DNA from: Okamejei kenojei | Lineage: Eukaryota | Direction: 5' to 3' | Assembly: GCA_035221665.1 (NCBI GenBank) | Contig: CM069162.1 | Span: 23,560,001 to 23,624,000 of the forward strand | Length of the DNA stretch: 64,000 bases | Shown: positions 4,284 through 42,313 of the stretch, piece after piece | How positions within the stretch are numbered: position 1 is the stretch's first letter | Layout: every line of letters begins with the position of its first letter | Notes under the pieces: model-generated | Seen by the model: only the letters and a program-made list of their open reading frames with translations | The model's database searches: none | Told to the model about the DNA's origin: nothing | Position numbers and translations under genes: made by a program

Positions 4284-4950
4284 AGGCCCTGTCCCACTTA
4301 CGTGTCCTAGGTATGCAAATTACGCAACCTCGTCACGGCATCGCGTGGCCGCGCGTGGCCGGTCGCACTGAGAAGCGCGGAGGGGTATGGAGTTGTGCGC
4401 TGTATCGCGCGGCACTCCGAAATTTTGTAGCGAACGAAATCTACGAGCGCCACCGGCCTGTCGCGTAACTGACGAACAAAGTGGGACAGGCCCAAGACCC
4501 TGGCGCGACGCAACGTCTCACCTCCAACAGCAGCAGAAGCATGCAAACGATCGTCGAGCATGATGTCGCTCACGGCCGTTGCGGTCCGGATCCGCCCCCA
4601 CTTCTACTCCCAGAGCGGGGCCAAGAAAATTGAAGATAGACACAAAATGCTGGAGTAACTCAGCGGGAACGGCAGCAAATCTGGAGAGAAGGAATGGATG
4701 ACGTTTCTGGTCAAGACCTTTCTTTCAGACTGAAGAAGGGTCTCGACCCTGAAACATCACCCATTGCTTCTCTCCAGAGATGCTGCCGGTCCCACTGAGT
4801 TACTCCAGCATCTTGTGTCCATCTTCAAATTACGTCACACACTCCAGACGGCTGTGCAGATGCATGATGTCGCGCGCGACCGTCGCGCCTCAAAGCAACC
4901 ACGAGATCGCGTAATTAGCGTGCCAAGGACACGCAAGTGGGACAGGGGCT
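4284..4950. mobile_element. PIF/Harbinger-type MITE
   Basis: TIRs aggccctgtcccacttacgtgtcc / ggacacgcaagtgggacaggggct; flanks taa/tta; CpG-rich and non-coding; additional internal TIR-like sequence at about 4479-4493. Confidence 0.78.
4630..4828. mobile_element. Palindromic PLE-end element nested in a Harbinger MITE
   Basis: Two ~99-bp inverted arms centred on ttcag-a-ctgaa (centre 4729), each carrying a degenerate hammerhead-like core. Confidence 0.8.
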
Positions 4951-7409
4951 TTACAATCAGCCCAAGAGCAAGCCCCCAGTACACAGACTGATGTTGAGAT
5001 CTAGGGGGCTTCAAATCCATTTCTGATAACACATATGCTCTCTCCACAGGAAAAAAAACATTTTCCTCAAACTCAGAAGGACCACAATAATAATCTGAAA
5101 CAAGCAGTTAGATCATGCAAGTCAGCTGCTCAAGAGACAACAAAGACAACTTTATATAAAACATTCAACGTAAAGTGCTCAGTGTCAAAACAGCGGCAAG
5201 TTCTCGGGACTGGTGACTAATAGCTTGTTCAGGCTCAGTTTTAAAGTTTAGAGCCTTGACAGCACAAAACTAGCTATACCCTCTTTTTCGTCCATTTTAT
5301 TCCACTCACTGGCAGCTCTGCTTTCATGTTATAACGTTCTCATCTCTAAAACTCACCATTCGTCTCATCCCATAACATCTTAGCAAATATAATTAACTAT
5401 CCCATCTCCCCTCTTCGGTGTCAGGCCTTGCACTGCTTGATGATGCTCTTGTGAAGCACTTAACATTGCTATTTGAGAAAAAAAAGATTCAAATACTGGG
5501 ACCAATGAATCAACTAACCACACCCCAATCAACATTGCATGTGCTGACGTCAATTCTACACTATTTTACAATCACTCCCCTAGTCCCAGAGGGTGGATGG
5601 CATGCAACCCCAGATATTTATTTGATTTAAAAACTAGGTACCACAGTTTCAATGTACGTTTGAAAGAGATAAGTTAACAGAGCCTTCTTTTATTGGCACT
5701 CCAAGATGTTTTTTGCAAGACCTTCAAAAGCCCCGATGTAATTTTTTTTTTGATTTGAATAATTTGATTCAACAAATTCAAATAGAGATGAATAACTATC
5801 GGAGAGAGAAAAAAAAAAAAAGGTAAATGACTACGTTTCTATTTCACCAAAATGGGAGAAGGCACAGAGGAATTGAGAGGTGGGAACAGAAAATGATTAT
5901 GAACAGCATACATACCGCCATATTTGTTTAATGCAATCTTAACATTGGAGCAAATTCTGGGAAATCCCATGATGATCATTGTAGGTATCAATTGGCACTA
6001 TCCTTACTTTGCTTCCCAACCACACTATTTAAGAGGATGCAAGAGACTGTAGACGCTGGAATCACAAGCAAAAAAACTACCAGAGAAACTCCGCATCTGT
6101 GGAGGGAAATGGGCAGACTGCACTTAGGGCGAGGACTCTTCAAGACTGTCAATTTAATTTATGCCCTATAGTCACTTTACTGAATTATGCTGCCAGATGG
6201 CTCAGTTAATAGATGCAAATCACCAACGAGTTGCACATCAAAATTGACATTAAATATTCCATTAGAAAGAACAATCCAAATCTAAGGAATGCCAATGCCA
6301 ATCTGGAAATAGTCAAGCCCAGCTGGGAATGTCTAACAAGTCAACTCCTCAGAGCTACATGTAATCTAATTTTGATCAACTTTTGACACATGCCACAGTT
6401 TCACTGGCAAGACCTACAGTCACTGTCCAAGCCCAAATTGCCTTTTTGGGCCACTTTTGGAGACCTATTAATCAACTGCCATGCCCCTAATTTCAATACA
6501 AGCCAAAGTAGGCAATTTTCCTAACTGTTCAGCAACAAGGCATATTCACTTATGACAATGACAATTAATCTATTGACTTTTTGACAACGTTTTTACACTA
6601 ATTGAATTTAAAATTCTCATTTAATCTGCTGCGATTTGAACTCAACCAAATTTAGTACAAAGTTTTGGAAGTAGTGACAACAAACAATATGAAGTATTAG
6701 CTTTAAGAATTGGGAAGTACACCTTGACATATCCAACCACACATTAATAAAACCATTCTTTCAAACGTGGTCAGGAGTCATCACAAAATATAGGAATAGA
6801 AAAATGCCCCGAGAGTTTTAATCAGATTAATCTGAACACTTCCCTCCTATATAACATTATTCTCCGACATTTTGCCAACACGGCATTCATTATAGTTTAA
6901 ATGGGTTTTGCATCAGAGCATTCCCCAATTTGTAAAGCCCGTCTTGAGTAGGTCAGGTGATTCACTAAATTTCCGAGGAACTTTGCGCTTGGACCAAACC
7001 CAAAACAATAAAGAAGAAACGCGACAATTTTCCATTAAATTAGAAAAAAAAAGCACGATCATATAGCTACTAATCCTTCAGTCTTCAGAATGGGTTAACA
7101 CTACTTGTTGCATTTTCATTATCGATGATTGAAAGCAGCAGCCAAGAAATCTTCTGGGGAAAAGCAAGCTTGACATTTTCCAAAATAGTCAGCAACTTAT
7201 ATAAGTTACGAAAAGTACAATAATGTATATCTCCCTTCAAAACCAGGCCTCAAGGAAAGCAACTTATCGAACTTCAGAGACACTGACAGCAAAGACTGCA
7301 ACTAATTTCCGACAAACTTTGGAACAATTCCTCATAATACTTTGCTACCAACTGAAGGTGGGGAGTTTTTTTAAAAAATGAACCTTCACTGAGAGAGAGG
7401 GAGAGAGGC

Positions 7410-7850
7410 CCGGTTTTAACCCGCCCGCCCGCGGCCTTGCCTCAGCTCAAGCCTGGGATTGAGCGGGAGAAAGGGAGAGATAAAATGTCCGGTACTGGAA
7501 GTGGAAGGGAGCGAGAGGCACGGGGGGGGGGGAGAACTTACATGTCTTCTCACAATGAGCCGTCGACGCAGCGGCCGGGAGTCGGGTGTTGTCCTCAGCG
7601 GCTCGGAGACGTGACGGCACCAGCGCGGCCTCCACCAAATATACTGGAGCTTTATCCTCCCTCCACTGCCAGCGGCCTGTTGTCCCCGCCCTCGGCCTCC
7701 GCCTCCGCCTCTCCCCGTCCCCGCCCCCCGCCCTAGGCCCCGTCCCCGCTCCCGCCCTCGGCCTCTGCCCACCTCGGGCCTACCCTGTCCCGTCCCGCCC
7801 TCTCCCCGCTCCTCCCTCTCCCCCAGCAACACTCGGATGCTCCTGACCAA
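7410..7850. promoter_or_regulatory. CpG island / GC-box promoter
   Basis: Abrupt GC- and CpG-rich block in an AT-rich background, with several CCCGCC/CCCCGCCC Sp1-like boxes at about 7680-7810, upstream of a minus-strand donor site. Confidence 0.8.
7542..7543 (-). CDS. VAMP3: Probable VAMP3-like exon 1 coding part (split start codon AT|G)
   Basis: Minus strand gagaagacAT|GTAAGT is a consensus donor (7541-7536) inside the CpG island. VAMP1/2/3 exon 1 ends in AT, and VAMP3 lies directly downstream of CAMTA1 on the same strand in mammals. Exon 2 was not found in the window, so the identity rests on synteny. Confidence 0.55.
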
Positions 7851-7968
7851 AGATTATAGAGGAGCTCTTGCTCCTGACCAAAGATTATGCTCCTGGCAAC
7901 ATCCAGCGAGGCAGGGAGGAATGTTGTCAGAGTTGGAAGGGGAAAGATAAAACATCCGTAGAAATGAG

Positions 7969-10020: not shown

Positions 10021-11377
10021 ATCCCCCCCCCCCTCCCCTTTGAGGGATACAGCATGGAAACAGCCATTCGGCCCGAAGCATCACTAGCAAGTTCCTAATA
10101 GTTTCCCCATGGCTGCCTTGCACAAAGAACATGATTCCTCTGAGTACTGTTCTCCGCCCCACTCTCCAACATCATATCATTTGCAGCACCACTCTCCGTG
10201 GCTGGAATAATGTTGTTTGTAGGGTATATCCACCCCATTACAGAAACATACAATGTCTACGGCAAAGGAAGTTGTCATTTGGTCCATCGTTCGTTCTGCC
10301 TTTGTGTAAGCAATTTAACTAGCCCAACTCCCTAACCACATAGGTACTGTAAATTATTTCCCTTCAGATGTTACATAACCGCCTCTGAATCTCTTTCCCC
10401 TTAGTTAAATCTATATTGTTTTGTTTTATCTGTCGCTGATATGGGGAAAGGTTTCCTGCAGTCTACAATATCTATACCCCTCACGATTTTTATATAGCTC
10501 AGTTCTTAGCCTACTTCTTAGCCTAGAACAGACCCTGCCTCTCAAACACTCCATCACGGGTGAATCTCCGCTGCACCCAATGGTGTATAAAGTTGAGCAT
10601 AACCTCCCTGGTTTTCTATTCATCTCCCTGACTAATAATGGCCATTATCCTGAGTGGTGAAGTTTTACATTCCTGCCCCTCCAGGACTGCCCTGGAAACT
10701 CCAGGAATTAATCTCCAAACACATTGTGGCAAACTGGTGTTGGTATTATAAGATGCAAGTGACTTTCTTTAATGAGTTACAAAAGTATTAGAGACAGATT
10801 AAAAAGCGTAACATCATCCAAACAGGTAATTATGAGTCTGTTTGGTTTCCAATTGGTTAAGGGAAGATGGGCAATATGCGAGATGTGTAATGATGGGTCC
10901 GTGGCTAGGTCATATTCATCGAGTGATACAGTGTGGAAACAGGCCCTTCGGCGCAACTCGCCTACACCGGCCAACAATGTCCCAGCTACCTTAGTCCCAC
11001 TTGCCTGCGCTTGGTCCATAACCCTCCAAACCTGTGCTATCCTTGGGTACACAAAAAGCTGGAGAAACTCAGCGGGTGCAGCAGCATCTAAGGAGCGAAG
11101 GAGATAGGCGACGTTTCGGGTCGAGACCCTTCTTCAGACTGGTCAGGGATCAGGGAAACGAGAGATATAGACGGTGATGTGGAGAGATAAGGAACAATGA
11201 GTGAAAGATATGCAAAAAAGTATCGGTGATAAAGGGAACAAGCCATTGTAAGCTGTTTGTGGTGTGAAAATGAGAAGCTGGTGTGACTGGGGTGGGGGAG
11301 GGAGATAGAGATAGAGGGAATGCCAGGGCCCGAGGGCTGAGGGAGAGGTGGGAAGGGGAGGAGACAGCAAGGGTTAA

Positions 11378-12595
11378 CAGAATTGAGAAAATTCAATATT
11401 CAAGCCCAAAGGATGCAGACTCCCCAAGCGAATATGAGGTGCTGTTCCTCCAGCTTGCGGTGTTGCTCACTCTGGCCGTGGAGGAGGCCCAGGACCGAGA
11501 GGTCGGATGTGGAATGGGAGGGGGAGTTGAAGTGCTGAGCCACCGGGAGGTCGGGTTGGTTATTGCGGACCGAGCGGAGGTGTTCGGCGAAACGATCGCC
11601 AAGCCTCCGCTTGGTCTCACCGATATAGATCATCTGGCATCTGGAGCAGCGGATGCAGTAGATGAGGTTGGAGGAGGTGCAGGTGAACCTCTGTCGGACC
11701 TGGAAGGACTGCTTGGGTCCCTGAAAGGAGTGGAGGGGGGAGGTGAAGGGACAAGTGTTGCATTTCTTGCGGTTGCAAGGGAAAGTGCCCGGGAAGGGGT
11801 AGAGTGGGAGGGGAGGGAAGAATTGACAAGGGAGTTGCGGAGGGAGCGGTCTTTGCGGAAGGCAGACAGGGGGGGAGATGGGAAGATGTGGCGGGTGGAG
11901 GGGTCACGTTGGAGGTGGCGAAACTGGCGGAGGACTATATGTTGTATTTGCCGGCTGGTGGGGTGAAAGGTGAGGACCAGGGGGACTCTGCCCTGTTTGC
12001 GAGGGGGGGAATGGGGAGCGAGGGCAGTGTTGCGGGGTATGGAGGAGACCCTGGTGCGAGCCTCATCAATAGTGGGGAGGGGAATCCCCGTTCTCTGAAG
12101 AATGAGGCCATTTGTGATGACCTGGTGTGGAACACCTCATCCTGGGAGCAGATGCGGCGTAGACGGAGGAATTGGGAATAGGGGATGGAGTCCTTACAGG
12201 AAGCAGGGTGGGAGGAAGAGTAGTCCAGGTAGCTGTGGGAGTCAGTAGGTTTGTAGTGGATGTCGGTCAGGAGTGTATCACCTGCAATAGAGATGGTGAG
12301 GTCAAGGAATGGTAGGGAAGTGTCGGAAATGGTCCAAGTGTATTTGAGTGCCGGATGGAAGTTGGTGGTGAAATGAATGAAGTCAGTCAGTTGTGTGTGG
12401 GTGCAGGAGGTGACACCAAGCAGTCGTCGATGTAACGGAGGTAGAGGTTCGGGGATGGGGCCCTGGTATGCCGAGAACAAGGATTGTTCGACGTACCCAA
12501 CAAAGAGGCAAGCGTAGCTGGGGCCCATGCGTGTGCCCATAGCTACGCCTTGTGTTTGGAGGAAATGGGAGGAATCAAAAGAGAAGTTATTGAAG
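11378..12595 (-). pseudogene. Second (inverted) copy of PLE RT plus GIY-YIG
   Basis: ORFs 11935..12540 and 11400..11633 mirror the plus-strand copy. This arm extends about 50 nt further 5' (LNNFSFDSSHFLQTQGVAMG). Confidence 0.9.
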
Positions 12596-12606
12596 ATTTA
12601 TTTCCT

Positions 12607-13779
12607 TAGCTATGGGCACACGCATGGGCCCCAGCTACGCTTGCCTCTTTGTTGGGTACGTCGAACAATCCTTGTTCTCGGCATACCAGGGCCCCATCCC
12701 CGACCTCTACCTCCGTTACATCGACGACTGCTTTGGTGTCACCTCCTGCACCCACACACAACTGACTGACTTCATTCATTTCACCACCAACTTCCATCCG
12801 GCACTCAAATACACTTGGACCATTTCCGACACTTCCCTACCATTCCTTGACCTCACCATCTCTATTGCAGGTGATACACTCCTGACCGACATCCACTACA
12901 AACCTACTGACTCCCACAGCTACCTGGACTACTCTTCCTCCCACCCTGCTTCCTGTAAGGACTCCATCCCCTATTCCCAATTCCTCCGTCTACGCCGCAT
13001 CTGCTCCCAGGATGAGGTGTTCCACACCAGGTCATCACAAATGGCCTCATTCTTCAGAGAACGGGGATTCCCCTCCCCCACTATTGATGAGGCTCGCACC
13101 AGGTCTCCTCCATACCCCGCAACACTGCCCTCGCTCCCCATTCCCCCCCTCGCAAACAGGGCAGAGTCCCCCTGGTCCTCACCTTTCACCCCACCAGCCG
13201 GCAAATACAACATATAGTCCTCCGCCAGTTTCGCCACCTCCAACGTGACCCCTCCACCCGCCACATCTTCCCATCTCCCCCCCTGTCTGCCTTCCGCAAA
13301 GACCGCTCCCTCCACAACTCCCTTGTCAATTCTTCCCTCCCTCCCACTCTACCCCTTCCCCGGGCACTTTCCCTTGCAACCGCAAGAAATGCAACACTTG
13401 TCCCTTCACCTCCCCCCTCCACTCCTTTCAGGGACCCAAGCAGTCCTTCCAGGTCCGACAGAGGTTCACCTGCACCTCCTCCAACCTCATCTACTGCATC
13501 CGCTGCTCCAGATGCCAGATGATCTATATCGGTGAGACCAAGCGGAGGCTTGGCGATCGTTTCGCCGAACACCTCCGCTCGGTCCGCAATAACCAACCCG
13601 ACCTCCCGGTGGCTCAGCACTTCAACTCCCCCTCCCATTCCACATCCGACCTCTCGGTCCTGGGCCTCCTCCACGGCCAGAGTGAGCAACACCGCAAGCT
13701 GGAGGAACAGCACCTCATATTCCGCTTGGGGAGTCTGCATCCTTTGGGCTTGAATATTGAATTTTCTCAATTCTGTTAA
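12607..13779 (+). pseudogene. PLE reverse transcriptase C-terminal half plus GIY-YIG endonuclease (frameshifted)
   Basis: AMGTRMGPSYA, YLRYIDD, LPFLD, YKPTD and YSQFLRLRRICS RT/thumb motifs; Cys linker CNRKKCNTC; NLIYCIRCSRC-MIYIGETKRRLGDRFAEH...HF...GLN GIY-YIG domain; split across frames. Confidence 0.9.
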
Positions 13780-14013
13780 CCCTTGCTGTCTCCTCCCCTT
13801 CCCACCTCTCCCTCAGCCCTCGGGCCCTGGCATTCCCTCTATCTCTATCTCCCTCCCCCACCCCAGTCACACCAGCTTCTCATTTTCACACCACAAACAG
13901 CTTACAATGGCTTGTTCCCTTTATCACCGATACTTTTTTGCATATCTTTCACTCATTGTTCCTTATCTCTCCACATCACCGTCTATATCTCTCGTTTCCC
14001 TGATCCCTGACCA

Positions 14014-14045
14014 GTCTGAAGAAGGGTCTCGACCCGAAACGTCGC
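14014..14045 (+). ncRNA. Minimal type I hammerhead-ribozyme-like motif in the PLE 3' end
   Basis: CTGAAGA (14016-22), A, GGGT-CTCG-ACCC hairpin, GAAA, CGTC. This gives the core boxes CUGANGA and GAAA, a palindromic ACGT in place of stem III, and a GUC cleavage triplet. Stem I is only about 2 bp. The mirror copy is at 11108-11139 (minus). Confidence 0.65.
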
Positions 14046-16313
14046 CTATCTCCTTCGCTCCTTAGATGCTGCTGCACCCGCTGAGTTTCTCCAGCTTTTT
14101 GTGTACCCTCGATTCTCCAGCATCTGCAGTTCCTTCTTTAAAACTGTGCTATCCTTGTACCTGTTTCTTAAACTATGGGACAGTCCCAGCCTCAACTACC
14201 TCCTCTGGCAGCTTGTTCCATACACCCACCACCCTCTGGGTGAAAAAGTTACCCCTCGGATTGTTATTAAATCTTTTCCCCTTCACCTTGAACCTATGTC
14301 CTCGATTGCCCTACTCTGAATTTGAATGTTGTATTGAAACATCCACCAATATGGCCAGGTAGGTTTGGGAACTCGGTAAGGATCTGCAATATGGAGGGGG
14401 TTCACCTATACCACCGTGTTCAACCTCAGGAAGATTTGGAGAATCATGTCCCCCCATGTCTGAAATGGCCTGACCCACTGGAGGTTAGGCTGCTTTGAGC
14501 CCCCAACCCAGGGAAGATTAACAGACATTCCAGGCTTGCTGTCCCCGATCCAGGGATTTCTGCTGGTAAGTGGATTCATCTGGTTGTCTTGTGACTCAGC
14601 TATGAAGTCTTGCCCTGTGATTAACCTCTTGTCACTCTCTGAGTGCAGAAACTAACAATAGGCTGGTAATGTGCCAGAGAAACACCACACAATATGATTG
14701 AGTTCGAGTGAAAAAGGACCAAAGTGTATTTGGAAAAGGAATTCCAACAATGTAGAGGCGAAACATTGTGAAAGCTGGAATTCTGAAATTAAATTAGAAA
14801 GGGTTTAAAAGTTTCCAATATTTTCTCTCATTTTTCTAAAAATATGTATAATTAAAATGGTAATAGTTGCACGAAGGAGCTCTGACAAGGTCAGAGTTAG
14901 GACATCATGAACCACCATCTCAACTAAATAGCAAAATGAATGTAAAACCCTATTGCAGGAATTCAAAACACGCTGGTTGTGAATGTTGGCTGAAGTGCAA
15001 TGATAAAGAATTGTTCTCTGCAGAGTAAAGCTAAGTACGTTAGAATTACATAGCACCACAGAATGAAACAACACGGGAGGGTGAACCGGCTTAATGCCCC
15101 CATCGCCTTCAAGGTCGGCTGCAGGAAACGCCCACGGGACACAAAGATGGCCGGACGAGGAGAGGGATGCCGGTTTGCGGTAACTACACCTGCGGACCGT
15201 GCAGTGGGCTGACTGGACTTTGAATAACGGCGTCAAAAATGGCGACGTCTGCATGTGTAATATATGCAAAAAGGAATTTCACTCTGCAGTTGCATGTGTG
15301 ACAAATAAAGCACCTTTGAAGCATGTCCGTGTCAGACTTACGTGGTGTTATTTTGTGATCTCCAGGTAACTATTGAATCACTTTTCCCAGTTACTGTTGT
15401 AATGTAGGATCAGGACATGGGATCTATACACAGCAACTGCCCACAGGCAGCATTGTGATGAAACAACAAAGACTAATCATATTGGTTGAACGATAAGCAT
15501 TGGCCTTTTACACTACTAAGGAGTGACATGGGATCAATTACATCCACCAGGTAGGTAGATAGGTAGGGGGTGTTAGATTCCCCGACTGAAAGAACACACC
15601 TCTGATGTGGGCCAAACATAGGCAGCAAAGCCCCACTTCAGTACAACATTGATGCCACGCAGCTGAGAAGTTTCTAAAAGGGTGCACATGAAGATATCAC
15701 AAGAAGATGTTGCCCCCTCTGGTGTGAGGATCCAGCCGCCATTCTCAACCAGGACTCACTGGTGTCTGTGAAAGTCACCGAAGAATGGGTTCTACCCACC
15801 AGTGCAATCGTGCAGAATGAGTGAAACGATTCTGCAGACTGTTGCACCTCATTCACACAGACCGATACAGAAAACAAGTGATATCAGACAAGGACAGTAG
15901 TCAGGTTTCTAATTTACTTTCACCTGTCACACAAATTCAAAATCAAAGTCGATGGTTTTTGAGCTGTGGCAGGCAATTTCAACAAACATTAGTGAGGAAG
16001 TAATGTGTAAAACTGTGTAAAATAGTTAATTGTTAATAATGCTGCAGTGCATCAGTTCAAGAGAGCCATTGAAATAAGGACGAGTGTTATTGTACCTGGG
16101 TCTCTGGAGAATCCGCTCTTCCTGTGTTTACGGCAGCTTTTGTTTCCAAAGTGCTTTTCATTATGTTTCCCTGACAGTAACATCTGTATCCAGGGAGGCA
16201 AACACTAACCAGAGCTCAGAGGTATCCAGGCTGGTTCACCCCGTGTCGTGCTGTTGGAGTGCCATTGTGAAATGCTGCATCGTGGCCCCATCTACAGATG
16301 TTAAAAATACAGC

Positions 16314-17402: not shown

Positions 17403-18438
17403 TTTAGTTTTTTAGTTTAGTGATGCAGCACCGGAACAGGCCCTTCGGCCCACCGAGTCCGCACTGACCAGCGATCCCCGCACACTAACGCTATCCTACG
17501 CACACTAGGTACAACTTACACTTAGGGGAGCTCCCCCTCCCATCACCCCACTCACCATCAGTCACATCTGTGGAGTCTTTTAAGTTCCTGGGAACCATCA
17601 TCTCCAAGGACCTTAAGTGGGGGGCTACCATCGACTCCACAGTCAAAAAGGCACAACAGAGGATGTACTTCCTACGGCAGCTGAGGAAGCACAATCTGCC
17701 ACAGGCAATGATGGTCCAATTCTACACGGCCATCGTAGTCTGTTCTCACCTTCTCCATCATGGTCTGGTTTGGCTCAGCCCCAGCACGACACTGGAGGCT
17801 GCAGCGAATCGTCGATCAGCAGAGAAGGTTATTGCTGCAACCTTCCCTCATTGATGAACTGTACACTGCAAAGGCCAGGAAGCGAGCAGCAAGATCATCT
17901 CTGACCCTCTCACCTGGCCACAAACTCTTGAATCACTTCCCTCTGGAAGGCGACTCCGGATTGTCAAAGCTGCCACAGCCAGACATAAAAACAGTTTTTA
18001 TCCACGAGTAGTTGCTCTACTCAACAGCCAAAAATCTGTAGCCTCCCTTTGATCTGGTATTTTGTTGGTTTGCATGCTTGATCAATGGTGTTTTATCATT
18101 AATGTTTTATTATTATTAATGTTTAGTGTTTTCTGAATCATTCGCAACTGTCACTGTATGTCCTGTTGTTACTTGTGGGCAGAGCACCAAGGCAAATTCC
18201 TTGTATGTGAATACTTGGCCAGTAAACTTACTTACTTACTTACTTACTTGTACCAAGCCAATTATTCTACAAACCTGTACATCTTTGGAGTGTGGGAGGA
18301 AACCGAAGATCTTGGAGAAAACCCACGTGGTTGCAGGGAGAACGTACAAACTCCGTACAGGCAGCACCGTAGTCAGGATTGAACCAGGATCTCGGACGCT
18401 GTAAGGCAACAACGGTACAGCTGCGCCACTGTGCTGCC
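17403..18438 (-). mobile_element. tRNA-derived SINE split by a LINE insertion
   Basis: Tail at 17403-17522 and head/core at 18251-18438 are contiguous in the family consensus seen in the other copies. Confidence 0.78.
17523..18250 (+). mobile_element. Rex1/Babar-type LINE 3' fragment inserted in a SINE
   Basis: FKFLGTIISKDLKW...KKAQQRMYFLRQLRK RT C-terminal motif, frameshifts and a 3' (ACTT)n tail. The SINE halves lie at about 17403-17522 and 18251-18438. Confidence 0.8.
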
Positions 18439-19797
18439 CATGTTGCATATTTCTGTTTTCACAACTGACATAGGAGGAGGCCGTAGAGCCTATCGAGCCC
18501 TTCCCAGCTTGCTCTAAGTTTCCTATTATCTATTCCCCCTACATTTCCAACACTTACCCACACTCTGAAGGCAATTTAAAACGGCCAATTGACCCCCAAA
18601 GCACACACATCTTTGGGATGTGAGAGGAAATTGATGAAGTCACATGAGAACATGCAAACTCCACACAGGCAACAGTGGAAGTCAGGATTGCACAAGATTG
18701 GTGACGCAGTGAAGCAGCATCTCTGCTCGCTGCTAATACAAGTGTCCATCTGGGCCACTTTAGTTGGACCAACCATGGTGACATGAAGAAGTGTTTTGAC
18801 CAAAACATCACCCATTCCTTCTCTCCCGAGATGCTTCCTGTCCCACTAGTTACTCCAGCAATTTATGTCTGTCATGGTGACATGAATCTGGAGTTAGGCA
18901 GAGACCCTAACAAGACGTTTGTCCAAAGGTCACTCCGGCAACCAGCTGGGTTCGCAACTGGTTACTTCTACTGATGACTTTTATTTCCAAATTTATCTTC
19001 AACCAAATTTAGTTCCCAAACTGGATTTTAGCTAAGGTTTTTTATCCAGGAATTAACCCACAAATACTGAGCTATTTTTTAATAATCTGAATCTCACCTC
19101 AAGAATTCAAAGTCAGTAAATTTTAATAAATACCTGTTTGGGAATTTTTTGTACTGACTGCCTAGCCTCTTTATTTTCCATTCTCTCATGCACCAAAGTA
19201 GATTATCTGTTTCTCAATGCAGTGAACATATTGCTCATAACAATTCCAAAGAGCAAAAATTCTGTAAACACTGTCATGATTTAAAATGCAATTGAACACC
19301 TCAAATGTCTTTGCAAATGGAAATCTATTGATTTCCAACTCACCTCCAGGTTTGTCTTTCACTCGCGTTTTGACATGCAGAGCTCAAGTCTTCATGTTTC
19401 TTCACCTTTTCATCTCGTCCCACGGCATCCGAAACTTGCTTTTGAAGGTATTTGTTAGCATTGAGCATAACTAAACCACCTCACGCGTCCGAAACCGAGA
19501 TTTCCCCTCATTCCGACAGAGTGAATAACCAGAAACAGTTTCAAGTGAGAGGACAATCATGCATCATGATTAATTTTACAATAGATTTAAGATAAAGAGC
19601 AAAAGAAGCAGTGTGTCATGCAATCATTGTTTAACAGAGTAAACTGATCTGGACTGTGCTGCCAGAAAAGTGGAAGGATTTAATAGTAACTTACTTGAAT
19701 AGTTAAATACTTGAATGGAAAGTGAAAACCACTATTATCGAGCAAGAGCTAGAGATTTTAGGTTAGATAATACATAAACAATGGGCCAAAAGATAGT

Positions 19798-19925
19798 TTT
19801 AAAGAAGGAACTGCAGATGCTGGAGAATCGAGGGTACACAAAAAGCTGGAGAAACTCAGCGGGTGCAGCAGCATCTAAGGAGCGAAGGAGATAGGCGACG
19901 TTTCGGGTCGAGACCCTTCTTCAGA
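19798..19925 (-). mobile_element. 128-bp PLE 3'-end insertion with hammerhead-like motif
   Basis: Essentially identical to 14015-14142; flanked by 12-bp TSD ccaaaagatagt (19786-19797 and 19926-19937). Confidence 0.88.
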
Positions 19926-21221
19926 CCAAAAGATAGTCTTTGATTCTAGCGGGGTGATTTTAAATTAGTTCTCAAGGCATGACACTTTACCAGTGGGAAG
20001 TGAACACAGCGCCAATTTTACAGCTGATCTAGACATGCTAATCTATGGAGCAAATCCATCACTGCACCCAGTGTCACCAGCCTCCTGATGGGCAGATTAG
20101 GCCCCGACTTCTCACTGTGTCACTTGACGGGTATGCAATTTGTGCTGATATGGTATATCACAATGCTATGCAATTTAATTATACCGCTCGCAACTTTGAT
20201 GTTCATATGTTTCAGATGTTATCAGATGTGTAACCTAATCGTGGCGCCAATTAATTGGAGGGAGGAGGGCTTTCTGGGCCAGTGCTAACGACATGTTTTC
20301 TGACAATCATGCCAACTGAAGTCCAGACATGGCCACTCCCAACTAGTGGAACAGGCATCAGCTTCTACCAATGCCACACTACCAGCAGGCTATGTGTATC
20401 GTGGTTTGAAGTCCAAAAGCAAATGAACAACCTCAAACGTCTTTGCAACTGGAATGATATCCAACTCACCTTCAAAGGTGTCTTTCTCTCTTGTTTTGAT
20501 AGGTTGAACTCATGGCACTCTCGTTACATTACCTGCACACAGCATCATTGTAAAGGGGATGATAAAGGGATTTGTGAGTACGTATCGCAGAATATTATAG
20601 ATTGCTTCCTGATGTTACTCGCGAATGATTAAAAAACTTGATCTAGATTCCCCCACACGAGGAAATGATATTGCTTGTCATGCGAGTAAATAAATTATTC
20701 AACAGGTAGGACACACTTGCCATCTCCCTCCTTCTCCCGAGGCACTTAATCAGAAACTTCTTCTGACTGCTTTGGATGATTGAAATCCAGTCCAGGCGAA
20801 TAACTGGTATCATGAGAAACATTCTTTGTCATGCCTTATCTTCTGGAGCAGGCCTGGCTTGAAGGCCAGTCAGTGCTCACCATATCAGCTGGCAACACAT
20901 CTCACAGACACAGTACTCTCTCACAAAACAGATTCTCAACGCAAGCTGACATTTTATACATATCATGTGTTATAGTGGCTGTTGGATTAGTAAAATGTTA
21001 ACAAAGGAATCCCAATGACACTACTGGTTCCTGTATAAAACTAACCGCCATGTAGCTCAAGAACTAGATTAGAAGCGACAACATTAGAAATAACACAACA
21101 GAGCTGTGGATAAACTTTTATCTGTCACACGGTTCAAAATTACATTTCCATTTAACATTTGGGCTGCACTCATTTTGTCTTCCTTCAGCCAGCTTCAGTC
21201 GTACCAATGAATGCTTTTGGA

Positions 21222-28742: not shown

Positions 28743-29746
28743 CTGAAGGAAGAGAGGGGAACAAAAAGAATAAAATTATGTCACCGATATTGGAGCCAAT
28801 TTACAAACCAAGGACACGTCAAAAAAAGGAATAACCAGTAACATTGTTGGTTAATAGGTAACAATAGTCGGGAAAGGCTTCAATCATGGAATGATGTCGC
28901 ACAGAAAGAGGCTACTCAAGTCTTTATATTTACAAGACAACAACTCTGTTTGAAAAATTTGTGCAAATTACATGGTTATCATTATCATGGCATGGAGTGA
29001 TGCGATCAGTTACACTTTAACCTATGTGACCCTGGTCTCAAATCCCAAGACTGGTACAATTAGATCTGCAATCGTACAGGCAGCAGGATAATATCCCAAG
29101 ATTACTAATCCGTCAAGGATACGATCAAATTGATGATCATCACCATGAATTTGACTTCACTTAAAAAAAACTGGAAGTAGACGTAATTATGAAAGCTTGT
29201 AAATTCATAAGTTCTAGGAGCAGGATAAGGCCATTCGGCTCATCGTGTCTACTCTACCGTTCAATCATGGCTGATCTATCTTTTCCTCTCAATCCCATTC
29301 TCCTGCCATCGCCTCATAACCCCTGACACCTGTACTAATCAAGAATCTGTCAATCTCCGCCTTAAAAATATACGTTGACTTGGCCTCCACAGTCGCGTGT
29401 GGCAATTGTTGTAAAAGTAAATCTTCTGGGGATCGTTAGGGAAGTAAAGTTGGCCCACATGTGACCAATCCCAGCTCAACACAGGTGATGCTTGCTGGCC
29501 TTCTGAAGTCAGGAGTGCTGTCAGAACGTTACTGCAATACTACACCACAGCATCTCAATGATCCAGGCATGGGGAGATGAGAAATAGATGCTGGACATCG
29601 GGTTGACCAGGCACTGAGCTCAGATCTAGCCCACAATGGGGGAATGAACCCTGGTACCTGCAGGAAATAGAAACAAACTTCCAAGATGCCATTGCAGGTA
29701 AAACTCGGGGGGGGGGGGGCAAAGTCATACTGGTATAAATAAGATA

Positions 29747-31357
29747 CAGTGGCTTGCAAAAGTTTTCATACCCCTTGAACTTTTCCACATTTTGTCACGT
29801 TACAACCACAAACGTAAATGTATTTTATTGGGATTTTATGTGATAGACCGACACAAAGTGGCGCATAATTGTGAAGTGGAAGGAAAATGATACATGGTTT
29901 TCAAATTTTTTTACAAATAAAAACTGAAAAGTGTGGAGTGCAAAAGTATTCAGCCCCCTTTACTCTGATACCCCTAAATATAATCCAGTGCAACCAATTG
30001 CCTTCAGAAGTCACCTGATTAGTAAATAGAGTCCACTCGTGTGTAATCTAATCTCGGTATAAATACAGCTGTTCTGTGAAGGCCTCAGAGGTTTGTTAGA
30101 GAACATTAGTGAACAAACAGCATCATGAAGCCCAAGGAACACACCAGACAGGTCTGGGATAAAGTTGTGGAGAAGTTTAAAGCAAGGTTAGGTTATAAAA
30201 AAATATCCCAAGCTTTGAACATCTCACGGAGCACTGTTCAATCCATCATCCGAAAATGGAAAGAGTATGGCACAACTGCAAACCTACCAAGACATGGCCG
30301 TCCACCTAAACTGACAGGCCGGGCAAGGAGAGCATTGATCAGAGAAGCAGCCAAGAGGCCCATGGTAACTCTGGAGGAGCTGCAGAGATCCACAGCTCAG
30401 GTGGGAGAATCTGTCCACAGGACAACTATTAGTCGTGCACTCCACAAATCGGGCCTTTATGGAAGAGTGGCAAGAAGAAAGCCATTGTTGAAACATGAGA
30501 AGTCCCGTTTGCAGTTTGCCACAAGCCATGTGGGGGACACAGCAAACATGTGGAGGAAGGTGCTCTGGTCTGATGAGACCAAAATCAAAGTTTTTGGCCT
30601 AAATGCAAAACGCTATGTGTGGCGGAAAACTAACGCTGCACATCACCCTGAACACACCATCCCCACTGTGAAACATGGTGGTGGCAGCATCATGCTGTGG
30701 GGATGCTTTTCTTCAGCAGGGACAGGGAAGCTGGTCAGAGTTGATGGGAAGATGGATGGAGTCAAATACAGGGCAATCTTGGAAGAAAACCTGTTAGAGT
30801 CTGCAAAAGACTTGAGACTGGGGCGGAGGTTCACCTTCCAGCAGGACAACGACCCTAAACATACAGCCAGAGCTACAATGGAATTGTTTAGATCAAAGCA
30901 TATTCATGTGTTAGAATGGCCCAGTCAAAGTCCAGACCTAAATCCAATTGAGAATCTCTGGCAAGACTTGGAAAATTGCAGTTCACAGACCCTCTCCATC
31001 CAATCTGACTGAGCTTGAGCTATTTTGCAAAGAAGAATGGGCACAAATTTCAGTCTCTAGATCTGCAAAGCTGGTAGAGACATATCCCAAAAGACTTGCA
31101 GCAGTAATTGCAGTGAAAGGTGGTTCTACAAAGTATTGACTCAGGGGGGCAGAATACTTTTGCACGCCACACTTTTCAGTTTTTTATTTGTAATAAAATT
31201 TGGAAACCACGTATAATTTTCCTTCTACTTCACAATTATGCGCCACTTTGTGTTGGTCTATCACATAAAATCCCAATAAAATACATTTACGTTTGTGGTT
31301 GTAACGTGACAAAATGTGGAAAAGTTCAAGGGGTATGAAAACTTTTGCAAGCCGCTG
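29747..31357 (+). mobile_element. Tc1/mariner DNA transposon, Passport-like, full length (1611 bp)
   Basis: TA TSD (29745-46 and 31358-59); ~210-bp IR/DR-type TIRs beginning cagtggcttgcaaaag, with an inner repeat gtgcaaaagtattc; internal transposase gene. Confidence 0.96.
30125..31139 (+). pseudogene. DD34E Tc1 transposase with one late frameshift
   Basis: Paired-like HTH, GRPPK, WSDETK, FQQDNDPKH and SPDLNPIE (34 residues between the second D and E). An extra G near 30970 shifts the C-terminus (KIAVHR...KGGSTKY*) into another frame. Confidence 0.93.
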
Positions 31358-34324
31358 TAATTGTATGTTTTTTATAGCATACTGGAGGCAAAACAAACAG
31401 AGCTGCTTGAAGACTCTGTACCATCCAATCCTGTAATTTGAAAGCTGTTTGCCACTAAGCAGCTGTGGGAAGGCGGACACCACGACAATTTATAGGCCTG
31501 ACGAGCGACGGCTGGAATGGGGTGGAATTTATTTTTCTGCACTGAAACCTTCAAGAATATTTCCATCAGGCCTGGCAACCCTCATTCTTAATGAACTTAG
31601 ACCTATGGCAAAAAAAAAAATCCTGCTCATAAATTGGCAATGTCACGGGCATTGGATCGTGGGTAGTTAGCACTGAATATAATGACTTACTCATGTAGAA
31701 ATATGAATTCTTCTGAAAAACAGAGGGGGCTAAATTGGATGGTCCTCAAAAAACCTGCATGGTGATCTTTTGTAGTCTGCTATTTGTGTTGTCTGATAAT
31801 TATAACAAATTCAGTCTGCAGCCCAGATGGGAGTTATCCTTTCCATTAGCAGGGATCCAATTTTGTGAGTGGCTAGCACCAATTAAGACAAGGCTATGCT
31901 ATTTTAAGTCAACTTGTGCCTGTTGAAGGGGAGGCATTCTGAGGCAGGAGCTGATGTGTATTCTGCATCAGACCTGGGAAACATTTAAGAGTGGCATGGC
32001 AATGAAGGGAGCATACTCTGGGGCTCTCCTGTGTTATAATGAAGGCCCGGGTCCAGGTAATGGAGGGGAGGGAGGTCCTGTTTCTGAAGGGGCTTGCAAT
32101 AAAGGGTGGGTTGAGGGGGTGGGTGCTCCCCTAGCCTCATACAGAAGGCAACAAGTACACATTGCGGTGGGAGTCAACGCCAAGATTCAAGCATTGAGTA
32201 CTTGAATCCTGTCGTAAGAACGTTGATGCTGCTTCACGTCAACAATCAAAGTCTGAATGCATCTTAAAATGCCATCAAAAGCACCAGCAGCAGCACACAG
32301 TTCTCAGTGCACCATATCCGTATCACTCACTCATCAGCAACTTTGCACGATCAAACCTGGAGCCTATTATTCATAATCTGTACCACATTCCCCAACACTT
32401 GGCGCAACTCATCTCATAGCTTGCACACACAGCAGGTTTTTTATTTGTAGCTAGACTATCCAAATAGATCACATTGTGCTGAGGCACATTCCTCTCTATC
32501 ACAGGACAAGGAAGAGTGCACAGTCAGGGCAACAGCTAACCAGCAGGGGTAAAGTGCCATTCCATCATCGTGTTGCCTCACAGAAGCCTGCAGAACATCA
32601 CCAGTGTGAGAGTTACTGAGTCTGGGGGACGATGGGGGATATGGAGAGGGAAGACCGTGGAGGAAGATAGTGACCTCATTCTCAATCTTCCAATTCATAG
32701 CATCCCACAATCAAACATAGTCTTTCTCTCCCTGTCCTTCCCACCCTCTTTCATTTGTAAAGTTGTCCATTCTGACAGCCAAAAGGTGCATGGAGAGTAA
32801 GAATCGAGTGTTGGTCAAGGCACATTTGTGGATAGTTTGGCATTCACAACCAATAGCTCAGTGCGCAGCAATGCAGGGAACTTGGGGATGAATGTGGAAG
32901 CAGAGGGTATGTACGCTGGACACTGGACTTGCAGCAAAGGCCAAGCAGAGGAGAATGAGGTTCTGAAAGAGCTGAGTTGCACATGCCATAGATGAGCATT
33001 TGGATGGGGCTTGTACAGCTGCTGTGGTCAGATGATATGGACAATGAATGCAATGACAGGTTTGTGAGAAACCCATGCGGAATCAGCAATGCGGCAGCAA
33101 CTGGCAGCACCTCAAAGGAACTCTAGCGCAGGCAAATACGAGCGGAGCAACTGAACAAAGGCAATACAGCCAAGTCGTGAGTTAACGTTTGTCAGCAATT
33201 TGTCAGATTTTGATTTCTAAGTTTGGAATTTTTATTTTATAATTACCTTTGTTTAAGAAATGTCGCAAGCAGAGGCTATGAGGGAAGGTATGACATGGGT
33301 TGTTGGTGAATGGAAAATGTAGTTGGCATTTATTGGTGAAGTGGGCCGGTGGCACGTAGGCCAGGCAGAAGTGGGCTTGTGTTCTCGTGTGGACCCATCT
33401 GCTGCCCAATGTACAGCTTCACCACTATTCTGTCAAGGCTCTGGAGCATGCAGGAAATTATCACGAATCTCGAGTCAACAGGGTGCCTTACCACGTCTCT
33501 TGTGACATGGCGTTCATTCAATGTGCATTGCCCTACCTTTGAATGGATTGTGCATTGATATTCCTTGTCATAAAGTAGTTACCCTCTGGTTTGCTATGGA
33601 GACTCCGAAACATGTTATTTCTGGACAGCATCGGAATGAATACCTTTTGACTGGTGCCAGGAGATCAGGCATCAACCTGCATAATGTGCCGTGCTTAGTC
33701 GCAAACTAGCTGCAAACGAGGGACTGGAATCCCTTTGGATTTGTGCCGTTGGCACCTTCAAGTCAACGTGCCCATTGTCAGTGGCACTCTGTGTCATGGG
33801 GAAGCTGCAAATCTCCCAAAGCTGTTAGTTTGCTCTTACTGTTGGCGTCTGCCCAGAGGGAATGAAATGCACTCAACCTTTCTGGATTAGAGTGTATCAG
33901 TGACCTACCTCTCCCTTGTGCAGCAATGGTCAGCAGGCTGAGAGGTGTTGCAAATATTTCTTGCCTTAGCCTTAAAGGAATCGCGCCCCTAAAATGTCAT
34001 AGCCACAATGACTTAGACAGCAACTGGCAATGTGATCCTCAGCATACTTTGCTAGTGGGGTGGTGATATTTATTAGTGAGCTGATCCTTAATGAAGCACC
34101 AGTTTCCTCACACACACTGGCCATCCATGAGATTGAGCAAGCAGAACTGTACTCAGGGTTAATCTTTGCACAAGAGCTCTTATCCCTTCCTTCTCCCCCT
34201 TCTTCTGACAGCTCTTCCACCCCCCTCTTCTGAACCCACTGCCTGTTCTCTGAGTCACGCTGCATTCCAAAATATGTACCAAAACCCTGTTGATTTGCTA
34301 ACAGTCAAGATACAGTTTTTCAGC

Positions 34325-34501
34325 AAAGATGGACACAAAGCGCTGGGGTAACTCAGCGGCTCAGGCAGCATCTCTGAAGAAAAAGGATGGGTGATGTTTC
34401 GGGTCAGGACTTCTGATCCCGACCCGAAACGCCACCCATCCTTTTTCTCCAGCGATGCTGCCTGACTCGCTGAGTTACTCCAGCACTCTGTGTCTATCTT
34501 T
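34325..34501. mobile_element. Palindromic PLE-end element
   Basis: aaagatggacaca...ctgggg taactcagcg / cgctgagttactccagc...tgtgtctatcttt inverted arms; centre partly deleted. Confidence 0.78.
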
Positions 34502-42126: not shown

Positions 42127-42313
42127 CGAGTAAGAAGGAACTGCAGATGCTGGTTTACACTGAAGATAGACACAAAAAGCTGGAGTAACTCAGCGGGACA
42201 GGCAGCATCTCTGTCGAGAAGGAATGGGTGATGTCTCGACACGTCACTTATTCCTTATCTCCAGAGATGCTGCCCGTCTTGCTGAGTTACTCCAGTTTTT
42301 TGTGTCTATCTAC
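42127..42313. mobile_element. Asymmetric palindromic PLE-end element with TSD
   Basis: The left arm includes the aagaaggaactgcagatgctgg tail and the right arm lacks it. TSD tagaaatgtta lies at 42116-42126 and 42314-42324. Confidence 0.82.

Follow-up and report, generated by a model that had tools for sequence, protein, structure and literature searches.

The minimal hammerhead motif in the pseudo-LTR (pLTR) of a Penelope-like element (PLE) from Okamejei kenojei is probably left uncut in most of the linear RNA that it heads, and the long copies of this element probably come from a second, continuous template. This reading was drawn from a stretch of 64,000 nucleotides (GCA_035221665.1, contig CM069162.1, positions 23,560,001 to 23,624,000; "the window" below) and from related copies elsewhere in the 2.76-Gb genome. 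This very large young family stores its template ends in DNA, both as the ends of copies and as copies made twice from one molecule, and in the copy-end record the dominant template crosses the cut site intact. The role of PLE hammerheads and the rebuilding of pseudo-LTR tandems have been described as open questions (PMC8557442, PMC2377424); circle, read-through and strand-transfer models become testable here on one defined 130-nt region.

The PLE insertion and its genomic setting

The hammerhead at 14016-14043 terminates the right arm of a head-to-head inverted, 5'-truncated PLE insertion (Table 1). The traits of EN+ PLEs are all present, namely an RT followed by a GIY-YIG domain, a pLTR, a tail, an inverted/tandem structure and a target duplication, with the Pfam GIY-YIG match (E 3.7e-4, 21.2 bits) lying just under the cut-off of 22.6. 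The C-x4-C-x2-C linker, in the frame 13249-13779, fits the CX2-5CxxC definition; such a linker between RT and EN is a trait of the Neptune clade, shared with Nematis (PMC8557442), and points to membership of the window's PLE in that clade.

Table 1. Features of the PLE insertion and its hammerhead module (positions within the window)
Feature	Position	Strand	Remarks
Left 14-bp target-site duplication	11032..11045	+	Same 14-mer in the window only at 11032 and 14144
Left arm, inverted copy without tail	11046..12597	-	Inverted repeats 99-100% alike; mirror hammerhead 11110-11137
Right arm, 5'-truncated PLE	12607..14143	+	RT end, C-x4-C-x2-C linker, GIY-YIG endonuclease, 3' UTR, pLTR with tail; frames broken by indels
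Cluster of copy 5' ends	14009..14018	+	Anchored copies and junction copies
Stem I, 5' strand	14014..14015	+	Pairs with 14044-14045: G14014-C14045, U14015.G14044 (2 bp)
Hammerhead core C3-U4-G5-A6-N7-G8-A9, CTGAAGA	14016..14022	+	Sequence
Extra A between positions 9 and 10.1	14023	+	Sequence
Stem-loop II, GGGT/CTCG/ACCC	14024..14035	+	Sequence; 4 bp, G10.1-C11.1 closing pair
GAAA box 14036-39, CG 14040-41, TC 14042-43	14036..14043	+	Sequence
Palindromic A15.1-C-G-U16.1, then C17	within 14036..14043	+	Predicted intermolecular helix III
Predicted cut	between 14043 and 14044	+	Inferred from hammerhead numbering
Long hairpin	14063..14126	+	Predicted fold; outer stem 14063-71/14118-26
Two fixed copy 3' ends	14105-14110 and 14141-14143	+	PLE tail of roughly 35 nt between
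Right 14-bp target-site duplication	14144..14157	+	
Solo 130-bp insertion identical to 14014-14143	19797..19926	-	12-nt target duplication, one-base overlap at each end

The span singled out by the initial annotation, 14014-14143, is exactly that of the solo insertion at 19797-19926. Fifteen pLTR-derived pieces were found within the window with nhmmer, and exact-pattern matching in the genome gave 25,144 copies of the 38-mer 14016-53, 59,546 of 14065-95, 1,485 of an RT stretch and 160 of the tail-ORF junction. The head-to-tail tandem array of hammerhead units that characterizes retrozymes is absent from the window, where the copies are solo or inverted; tandems were seen in a few loci only. 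The module, 3' of the ORF in the window, is found 5' of the ORF start elsewhere (for example in L133 and L135), and since it precedes the ORF in these ORF-start loci it is a true pLTR. The main ORF has its ATG at the equivalent of 14178, past the tail, and a short upstream ORF begins at ATG 14066.

Anatomy of the hammerhead motif

By its anatomy the motif at 14016-14043 is a minimal type I hammerhead of a PLE pLTR. It has CUGANGA and GAAA boxes, an NUH triplet, the type I order without helix III, a single nucleotide that separates position 9 from 10.1, a G10.1-C11.1 pair and a palindromic 15.2-16.2; the last three are the consistent features of the minimal hammerheads described by Cervera and de la Pena (PMC4209133), which resemble ours in the type I order, the missing helix III and the many solo and opposite-strand copies as well. 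The motif itself is therefore of an already known PLE type and is ordinary within the family. Stem II has 4 bp here and 7-8 in Schistosoma, and stem I has 2 bp as does helix I of the D. virilis PLE hammerhead, compared with 4-5 in Schistosoma (PMC4209133). All of the sequence elements of the initial annotation were found in place when the letters were rechecked, and its reading of the motif as a PLE pseudo-LTR hammerhead of the minimal type I kind is borne out by the motif features and the pLTR setting; the palindromic ACGU is present, and the predicted cut after the GUC ending at 14043 agrees with hammerhead numbering. The extra A, which had been called non-canonical, is in fact listed as a conserved feature of these minimal ribozymes (PMC4209133).

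A degenerate 28-nt motif matched four times within the window and not at all in 100 shuffles. With a structure-aware regular expression there were 134 matches in 672 kb (the window plus loci L001-L160, which were partly selected for carrying the hammerhead motif), against 0, 0, 1, 0 and 0 in the shuffles. An Rfam scan of the motif gave no hammerhead match up to E=10.

Ends of the copies

The ends of copies were mapped with 14065-95, 3' of the cut site, as anchor; the loci lie in the initial 4.1 Mb of contig C1, and 88-90 of the 100 matches listed there had enough flank. Among the matches listed, 52 of 90 copies have their 3' end at 14105-10 and 27 at 14141-45. The 5' ends of the 88 anchored copies are concentrated at 14009-18 (46 copies, with 35 labelled as this subfamily; four of the 46 belong to another subfamily with a different UTR and hence are not truncated), and the others lie beyond 13830 (20), at 13830-14008 (1), at 14020-34 (15), at 14044-45 (2) and at 14047-60 (4). 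Genome-wide, the next 18 bases upstream (13998-14015) are retained in only 11,609 of the 25,144 exact copies; this upstream loss is not explained by error, since in the first 30 loci all 13 copies that continue upstream do so with at least 20 bases exact. A base other than C precedes A14013 in 3,580 copies, or about 4,800 after correction, as against an estimated 370 or so that start at the cut site, 14044.

No pile-up of copy ends was found at the predicted cut site 14044, where about 1% or less of the copies start. A filter that retains about 32% left 1,056 copies with the end of their match within 14040-51. By eye, 14044 received 11 of the ends among 100 matches listed, 14047 received 33 (14 from a tandem-repeat derivative) and 14043 none, and by script 3 of 30 ends were at 14044; the edge of 14044 over 14043 among the matches listed is small, and cleavage could make one. 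Tandem arrays with a 57-nt unit, made of pLTR sequence 3' of the cut site, are present in several loci (C1:123838951-123839156; C2:93578884-93579032), and L024 has similar 54-nt arrays of an older type.

In contigs from three other studies, which are only guessed to be RNA, loose ends at the equivalents of 14012-14 top the 'before' rows listed in three runs, the 14012 ends being partly those of other subfamilies. A splice acceptor at 14012-14 was considered and rejected, as the ends spread over 10 nt and the upstream matches that short copies share are inverted arms of the element and not a common exon. In L133 the main ATG is directly preceded by a donor-like sequence (equivalent of 14173-14183), and a pyrimidine tract resembling an acceptor ends at 14014; spliced copies were not encountered. 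A contig joint that 'goes back 194' was also rejected as a sign of a circle, because its intervening letters are unknown and another subfamily diverges at place 1355.

A likely transcription start at the edge of the ribozyme

The cluster at 14009-14018 is likely to be an RNA 5' end, that is, a transcription start. The sequence CCAGTCT in this cluster fits the initiator consensus. Polymerase II typically starts at a purine that follows a pyrimidine, and the commonest starts among 83 junction copies (14013 in 10, 14014 in 10 and 14018 in 16) are all purines, two of them after a pyrimidine. The evidence from an extra G, a sign of a cap, is mixed: it is locally in excess (32 of 59, p 8e-4; control 7 of 27), but among 100 genome-wide matches listed and scored by eye at 14013 there were 36 G, 42 A and 22 T, with no excess of G (p 0.32) and 78 purines (p 0.009). 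PLE promoters are located in the pLTR (PMC2377424). In D. virilis the start is followed by 46 nt and a 75-nt intron before helix I (PMC4209133, PMC2377424), so a start at the ribozyme is not the general layout. A start at 14009-18 would explain the 2-bp stem I, since such a transcript would have almost nothing upstream of the core.

Copies made in two passes

We collected 71 copies that hold the tail-ORF junction, from 70 of 100 places listed. Twenty-one of these continue 450 nt into the ORF and the others stop at 14194-14596. Eighteen of the ORF-continuing copies (among which L234 and L235 are one tandem) reach the motif, and 16 of them run through it while two stop at 14018, compared with 46% run-through among all copies (p 2e-4). 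When 46 of the non-full junction copies were mapped, 41 proved to be joined directly to a second piece of the element, which starts at 14005-26 in 19 cases, in the 3' UTR in 16 and later in six. In the direction of synthesis, the RT would have begun at the tail and reached an end, in many cases extended the copy by some untemplated bases, and then switched back to the ORF start for a second round of copying.

Both passes can be followed in 19 copies, of which three were left out (two junctions with identical flanks). In all 16 remaining pairs the two passes end in the same class (11 in the cluster, 5 upstream, none mixed; p 2e-4), and in eight their ends lie no more than 1 nt apart (permutation mean 2.6, p 4e-4). 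Of the 11 cluster pairs by themselves, seven show this agreement to 1 nt (p 0.025) and four end at an identical position, the latter not being significant (p 0.07). In the five upstream pairs both passes end in the 3' UTR, and in two of the five they do so within 5 nt of each other. Because both passes stop in the same class, the stop is a property of the template molecule, which points to physical RNA ends. The ORF start is included in the template of the two-pass copies, and this template is uninterrupted at 14043/44. The ORF-continuing copies mostly run through the cluster, which argues for a second, continuous template; this could be a ribozyme-made circle, a tandem read-through or the result of seamless strand transfer, which DNA cannot separate. 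Triple head-to-tail units of about 220-280 nt, which begin at the ribozyme 5' edge and extend into the ORF start, occur in L264 and L282, and retrozyme-like tandems may arise in this way.

Inverted copies

Scored by eye, 20 of 21 short inverted insertions have the tail on one arm only, with varied junctions, and the inverted element of the window is built likewise. An assembly fold-back was rejected as the origin of the latter in view of its 14-bp target duplication and one-armed tail. Inverted PLE structures of this kind have been described (PMC3846280, PMC8557442). By analogy with the Anolis protein in vitro, inverted copies may arise by priming on both target strands at two start sites. Older head-to-head pLTR pairs are present in the window at 4625-4820, 34331-34493 and 42132-42306, the first of which resembles a palindromic copy that has spread as a passenger inside another repeat. 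This is an unnamed repeat family of hundreds of copies (L194, L199, L202, L208, L211-L215 and L220, around 1500) that has captured a palindromic pLTR pair with a broken stem II and common downstream flanks.

Predicted RNA folding

The initial annotation had proposed a simple terminal hairpin, 14064-71 with 14118-25; its arms do pair in the predicted fold, where they close a longer hairpin, 14063-14126. Pair probabilities in the latter are 0.93-0.98 with or without RNA continuing into the ORF, and the fold z is -2.4 for 14044-14143 and -1.8 for 14056-14143. By analogy with Anolis (PMC11167929) this hairpin is likely to be part of the RT start signal. For the ribozyme the predictions are less favourable. 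Two 39-mers give a double hammerhead of -6.7 kcal/mol against -19.7 kcal/mol for the best cofold, stem II has a pairing probability of at most 0.01 in longer RNAs, and in the 130-nt RNA the core (14017-14025) pairs with the tail end (14132-14140) with p 0.98-0.99, a pairing that is weaker once the ORF start is included. The naked RNA is thus predicted to misfold, and the dimer hammerhead to be energetically unfavourable; neither these energies nor the copy ends lend support to the dimer cleavage envisaged in the initial annotation.

Conservation among copies

We grouped 302 copies by their sequence 3' of the cut site (316 were found and 14 left out because of gaps or duplication). The core CUGAAGA is unchanged in the majority rows of all five groups of at least nine copies; these share the core and stem II, except for CpG-decay positions in the nine-member group, and differ at loop II, at position 1.1 and at many spacer positions. 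Among 150 older copies the majority frequency is 0.93 in the core, 0.85 in the spacer 14046-63 and 0.84 in stem II, this last value being lowered by CpG decay and by the passenger family. Over the 302 copies the last pair of stem II is U-A in 241 and U.G in 33, G14024-C14035 is kept in 244 and the CG palindrome in 221, and in stem I U15-G44 is found in 134, U-A in 95 and G14-C45 in 234. A second young type has U.G in place of U-A in stem II and U in place of C17. The changes between subfamilies (loop II, U-A to U.G, C17 to U and A/G at 1.1) all fit the hammerhead fold.

Preferential conservation of the core and compensatory change in stem II were the two sequence signs to which the initial annotation had looked; the first is seen, the core of the older copies being conserved above its flanks, and the second was not found at the subfamily level, where the one change in stem II is one-sided (U-A to U.G). 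Two genome searches for stem II double changes gave 791 and 520 matches (controls 15 and 1) in which pairs and mismatches are mixed. The mix fits neutral decay, in which two transitions keep a pair, and was not taken as covariation. The commonest recurrent variant, with an A.A mismatch in stem II, was rejected as a sign of ribozyme selection; it is one old palindromic passenger in another repeat, with common flanks.

Mechanism and alternatives

The following order of events would account for these copies. Within a tandem element, the upstream pLTR would initiate transcription at about 14009-14018, and the RT, judging from the fixed 3' ends and from the Anolis work in vitro, would start at 14105-10 or 14141-43. 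The copy would cross the predicted cut site and stop at 14009-18, as the DNA copies do, and so give insertions of 95-130 bp. The RT may then jump back into the ORF start and copy again, as the junctions suggest, or two copies primed in opposite senses may become fused head to head within a single target duplication, the arrangement seen in the window. Long copies would come from a second template that is continuous across 14013, and the ribozyme would cut rarely, likely only with the help of protein. In the Anolis PLE, RNA that has not been cut serves as the principal substrate, the ribozyme cleaves only in the presence of protein, the cut site is free of RNA-seq ends, and the hammerhead homologue is dispensable for insertion in vitro (PMC11167929).

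A possible, if doubtful, alternative is that the ribozyme is active in vivo: both pLTR copies would be cut and the unit ligated to a circle from which the RT makes long copies and partial tandems, the short copies being made from RNA not yet cut. This extends the explanation given above and does not exclude it. Such a model has been proposed (PMC4209133), it would account for the run-through of the ORF-continuing copies and for the fixity of the core and stem II across subfamilies, and a ligated circle would leave no scar at 14044; however, misfolding is predicted for the naked RNA, stem I is no longer than 2 bp, tandem loci are present, identical products would be expected of read-through or seamless strand transfer, and the two-pass copies that end twice in the 3' UTR fit a linear RNA better. 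We advance only tentatively the idea of two templates, a capped linear RNA beginning at the hammerhead, which would be copied from the tail close by up to its 5' end into a 'strong-stop' product inserted tens of thousands of times, and a ribozyme-cut and re-ligated circle that gives long copies and promoter-regenerating partial tandems. If true, it would provide a scar-free job for the PLE hammerhead and an explanation of pLTR regeneration. It is unlikely that the motif has lost catalysis and is kept as a promoter or a protein-binding signal in DNA or RNA, even though it overlaps the inferred start (transcripts beginning at 14018 would omit C3-U4), lacks compensatory change between subfamilies and has well-conserved neighbours in other parts of the pLTR; the subfamily changes remain compatible with the fold, and for the Anolis homologue both cleavage in the presence of protein and C3/G8 rescue have been reported (PMC11167929).

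Two other explanations fit worse than an uncut linear RNA accompanied by a continuous template. It is improbable that the pile-up of ends reflects an RT stall at stem I, driven by sequence or protein, and not an RNA end; the stops do lie directly at the ribozyme 5' edge, where protein binding is plausible, but a stall would act independently in each pass, whereas every pair of passes agrees in class and nearly all ORF-continuing copies pass the site. We regard as very improbable a separate SINE-like family derived from a few short master copies. There are tens of thousands of near-identical 95-130-bp copies, and one old palindromic copy did spread as a passenger, but the 5' ends and inverted junctions vary between copies, and pieces that end in the cluster are joined to ORF-start sequence that the short copies lack.

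Relationship to other elements

The PLE of Anolis called PAc, a Poseidon element (Frangieh et al. 2024, PMC11167929), is like ours in its pLTR hammerhead, its two RT start sites bounding the tail, its hairpin at the start and, probably, its use of uncut RNA as substrate; it differs from ours, in which the main ORF lies past the tail (equivalent of 14178), a short ORF begins at 14066 and the linker is of the Neptune type. The accessible portion of that paper reports neither a pile-up of 5' ends nor double passes. A search of the literature, with most subscription papers and Repbase beyond reach, turned up no account of double passes, nor of copy ends that pile up where the ribozyme has its 5' edge. 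Penelope of Drosophila virilis (Schostak et al. 2008, PMC2377424) and the rotifer Penelopes (PMC3846280) share with our element the pLTR promoter, partial tandems, target duplications and inverted head-to-head pLTRs with the tail on one end, but here no intron was seen and the ribozyme abuts the inferred start. Non-LTR retrozymes (PMC7229834; bioRxiv 10.64898/2026.07.22.740005) are similarly short, non-coding, pLTR-derived copies with a type I hammerhead, and a few 220-nt tandems are found here too (L264); the copies described here are mostly solo or inverted rather than in tandem arrays, and their ribozyme is minimal rather than canonical.

Several other sequences were noted. At L141, just upstream of 1400, a 5'-truncated PLE ORF start is fused directly to telomeric hexamer repeats. 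In the window a frame at 30113-31012, presumably a Tc1/mariner-type transposase, lies between 179-bp inverted repeats (29745-29923 and 31181-31359) that are 96% alike, and 17489-17854 is what we take to be a fragment of a LINE-type RT/3' region frame. The stretch 7356-7853 is G+C-rich and of low complexity, with open frames on both strands, and is possibly the 5' end of a host gene.
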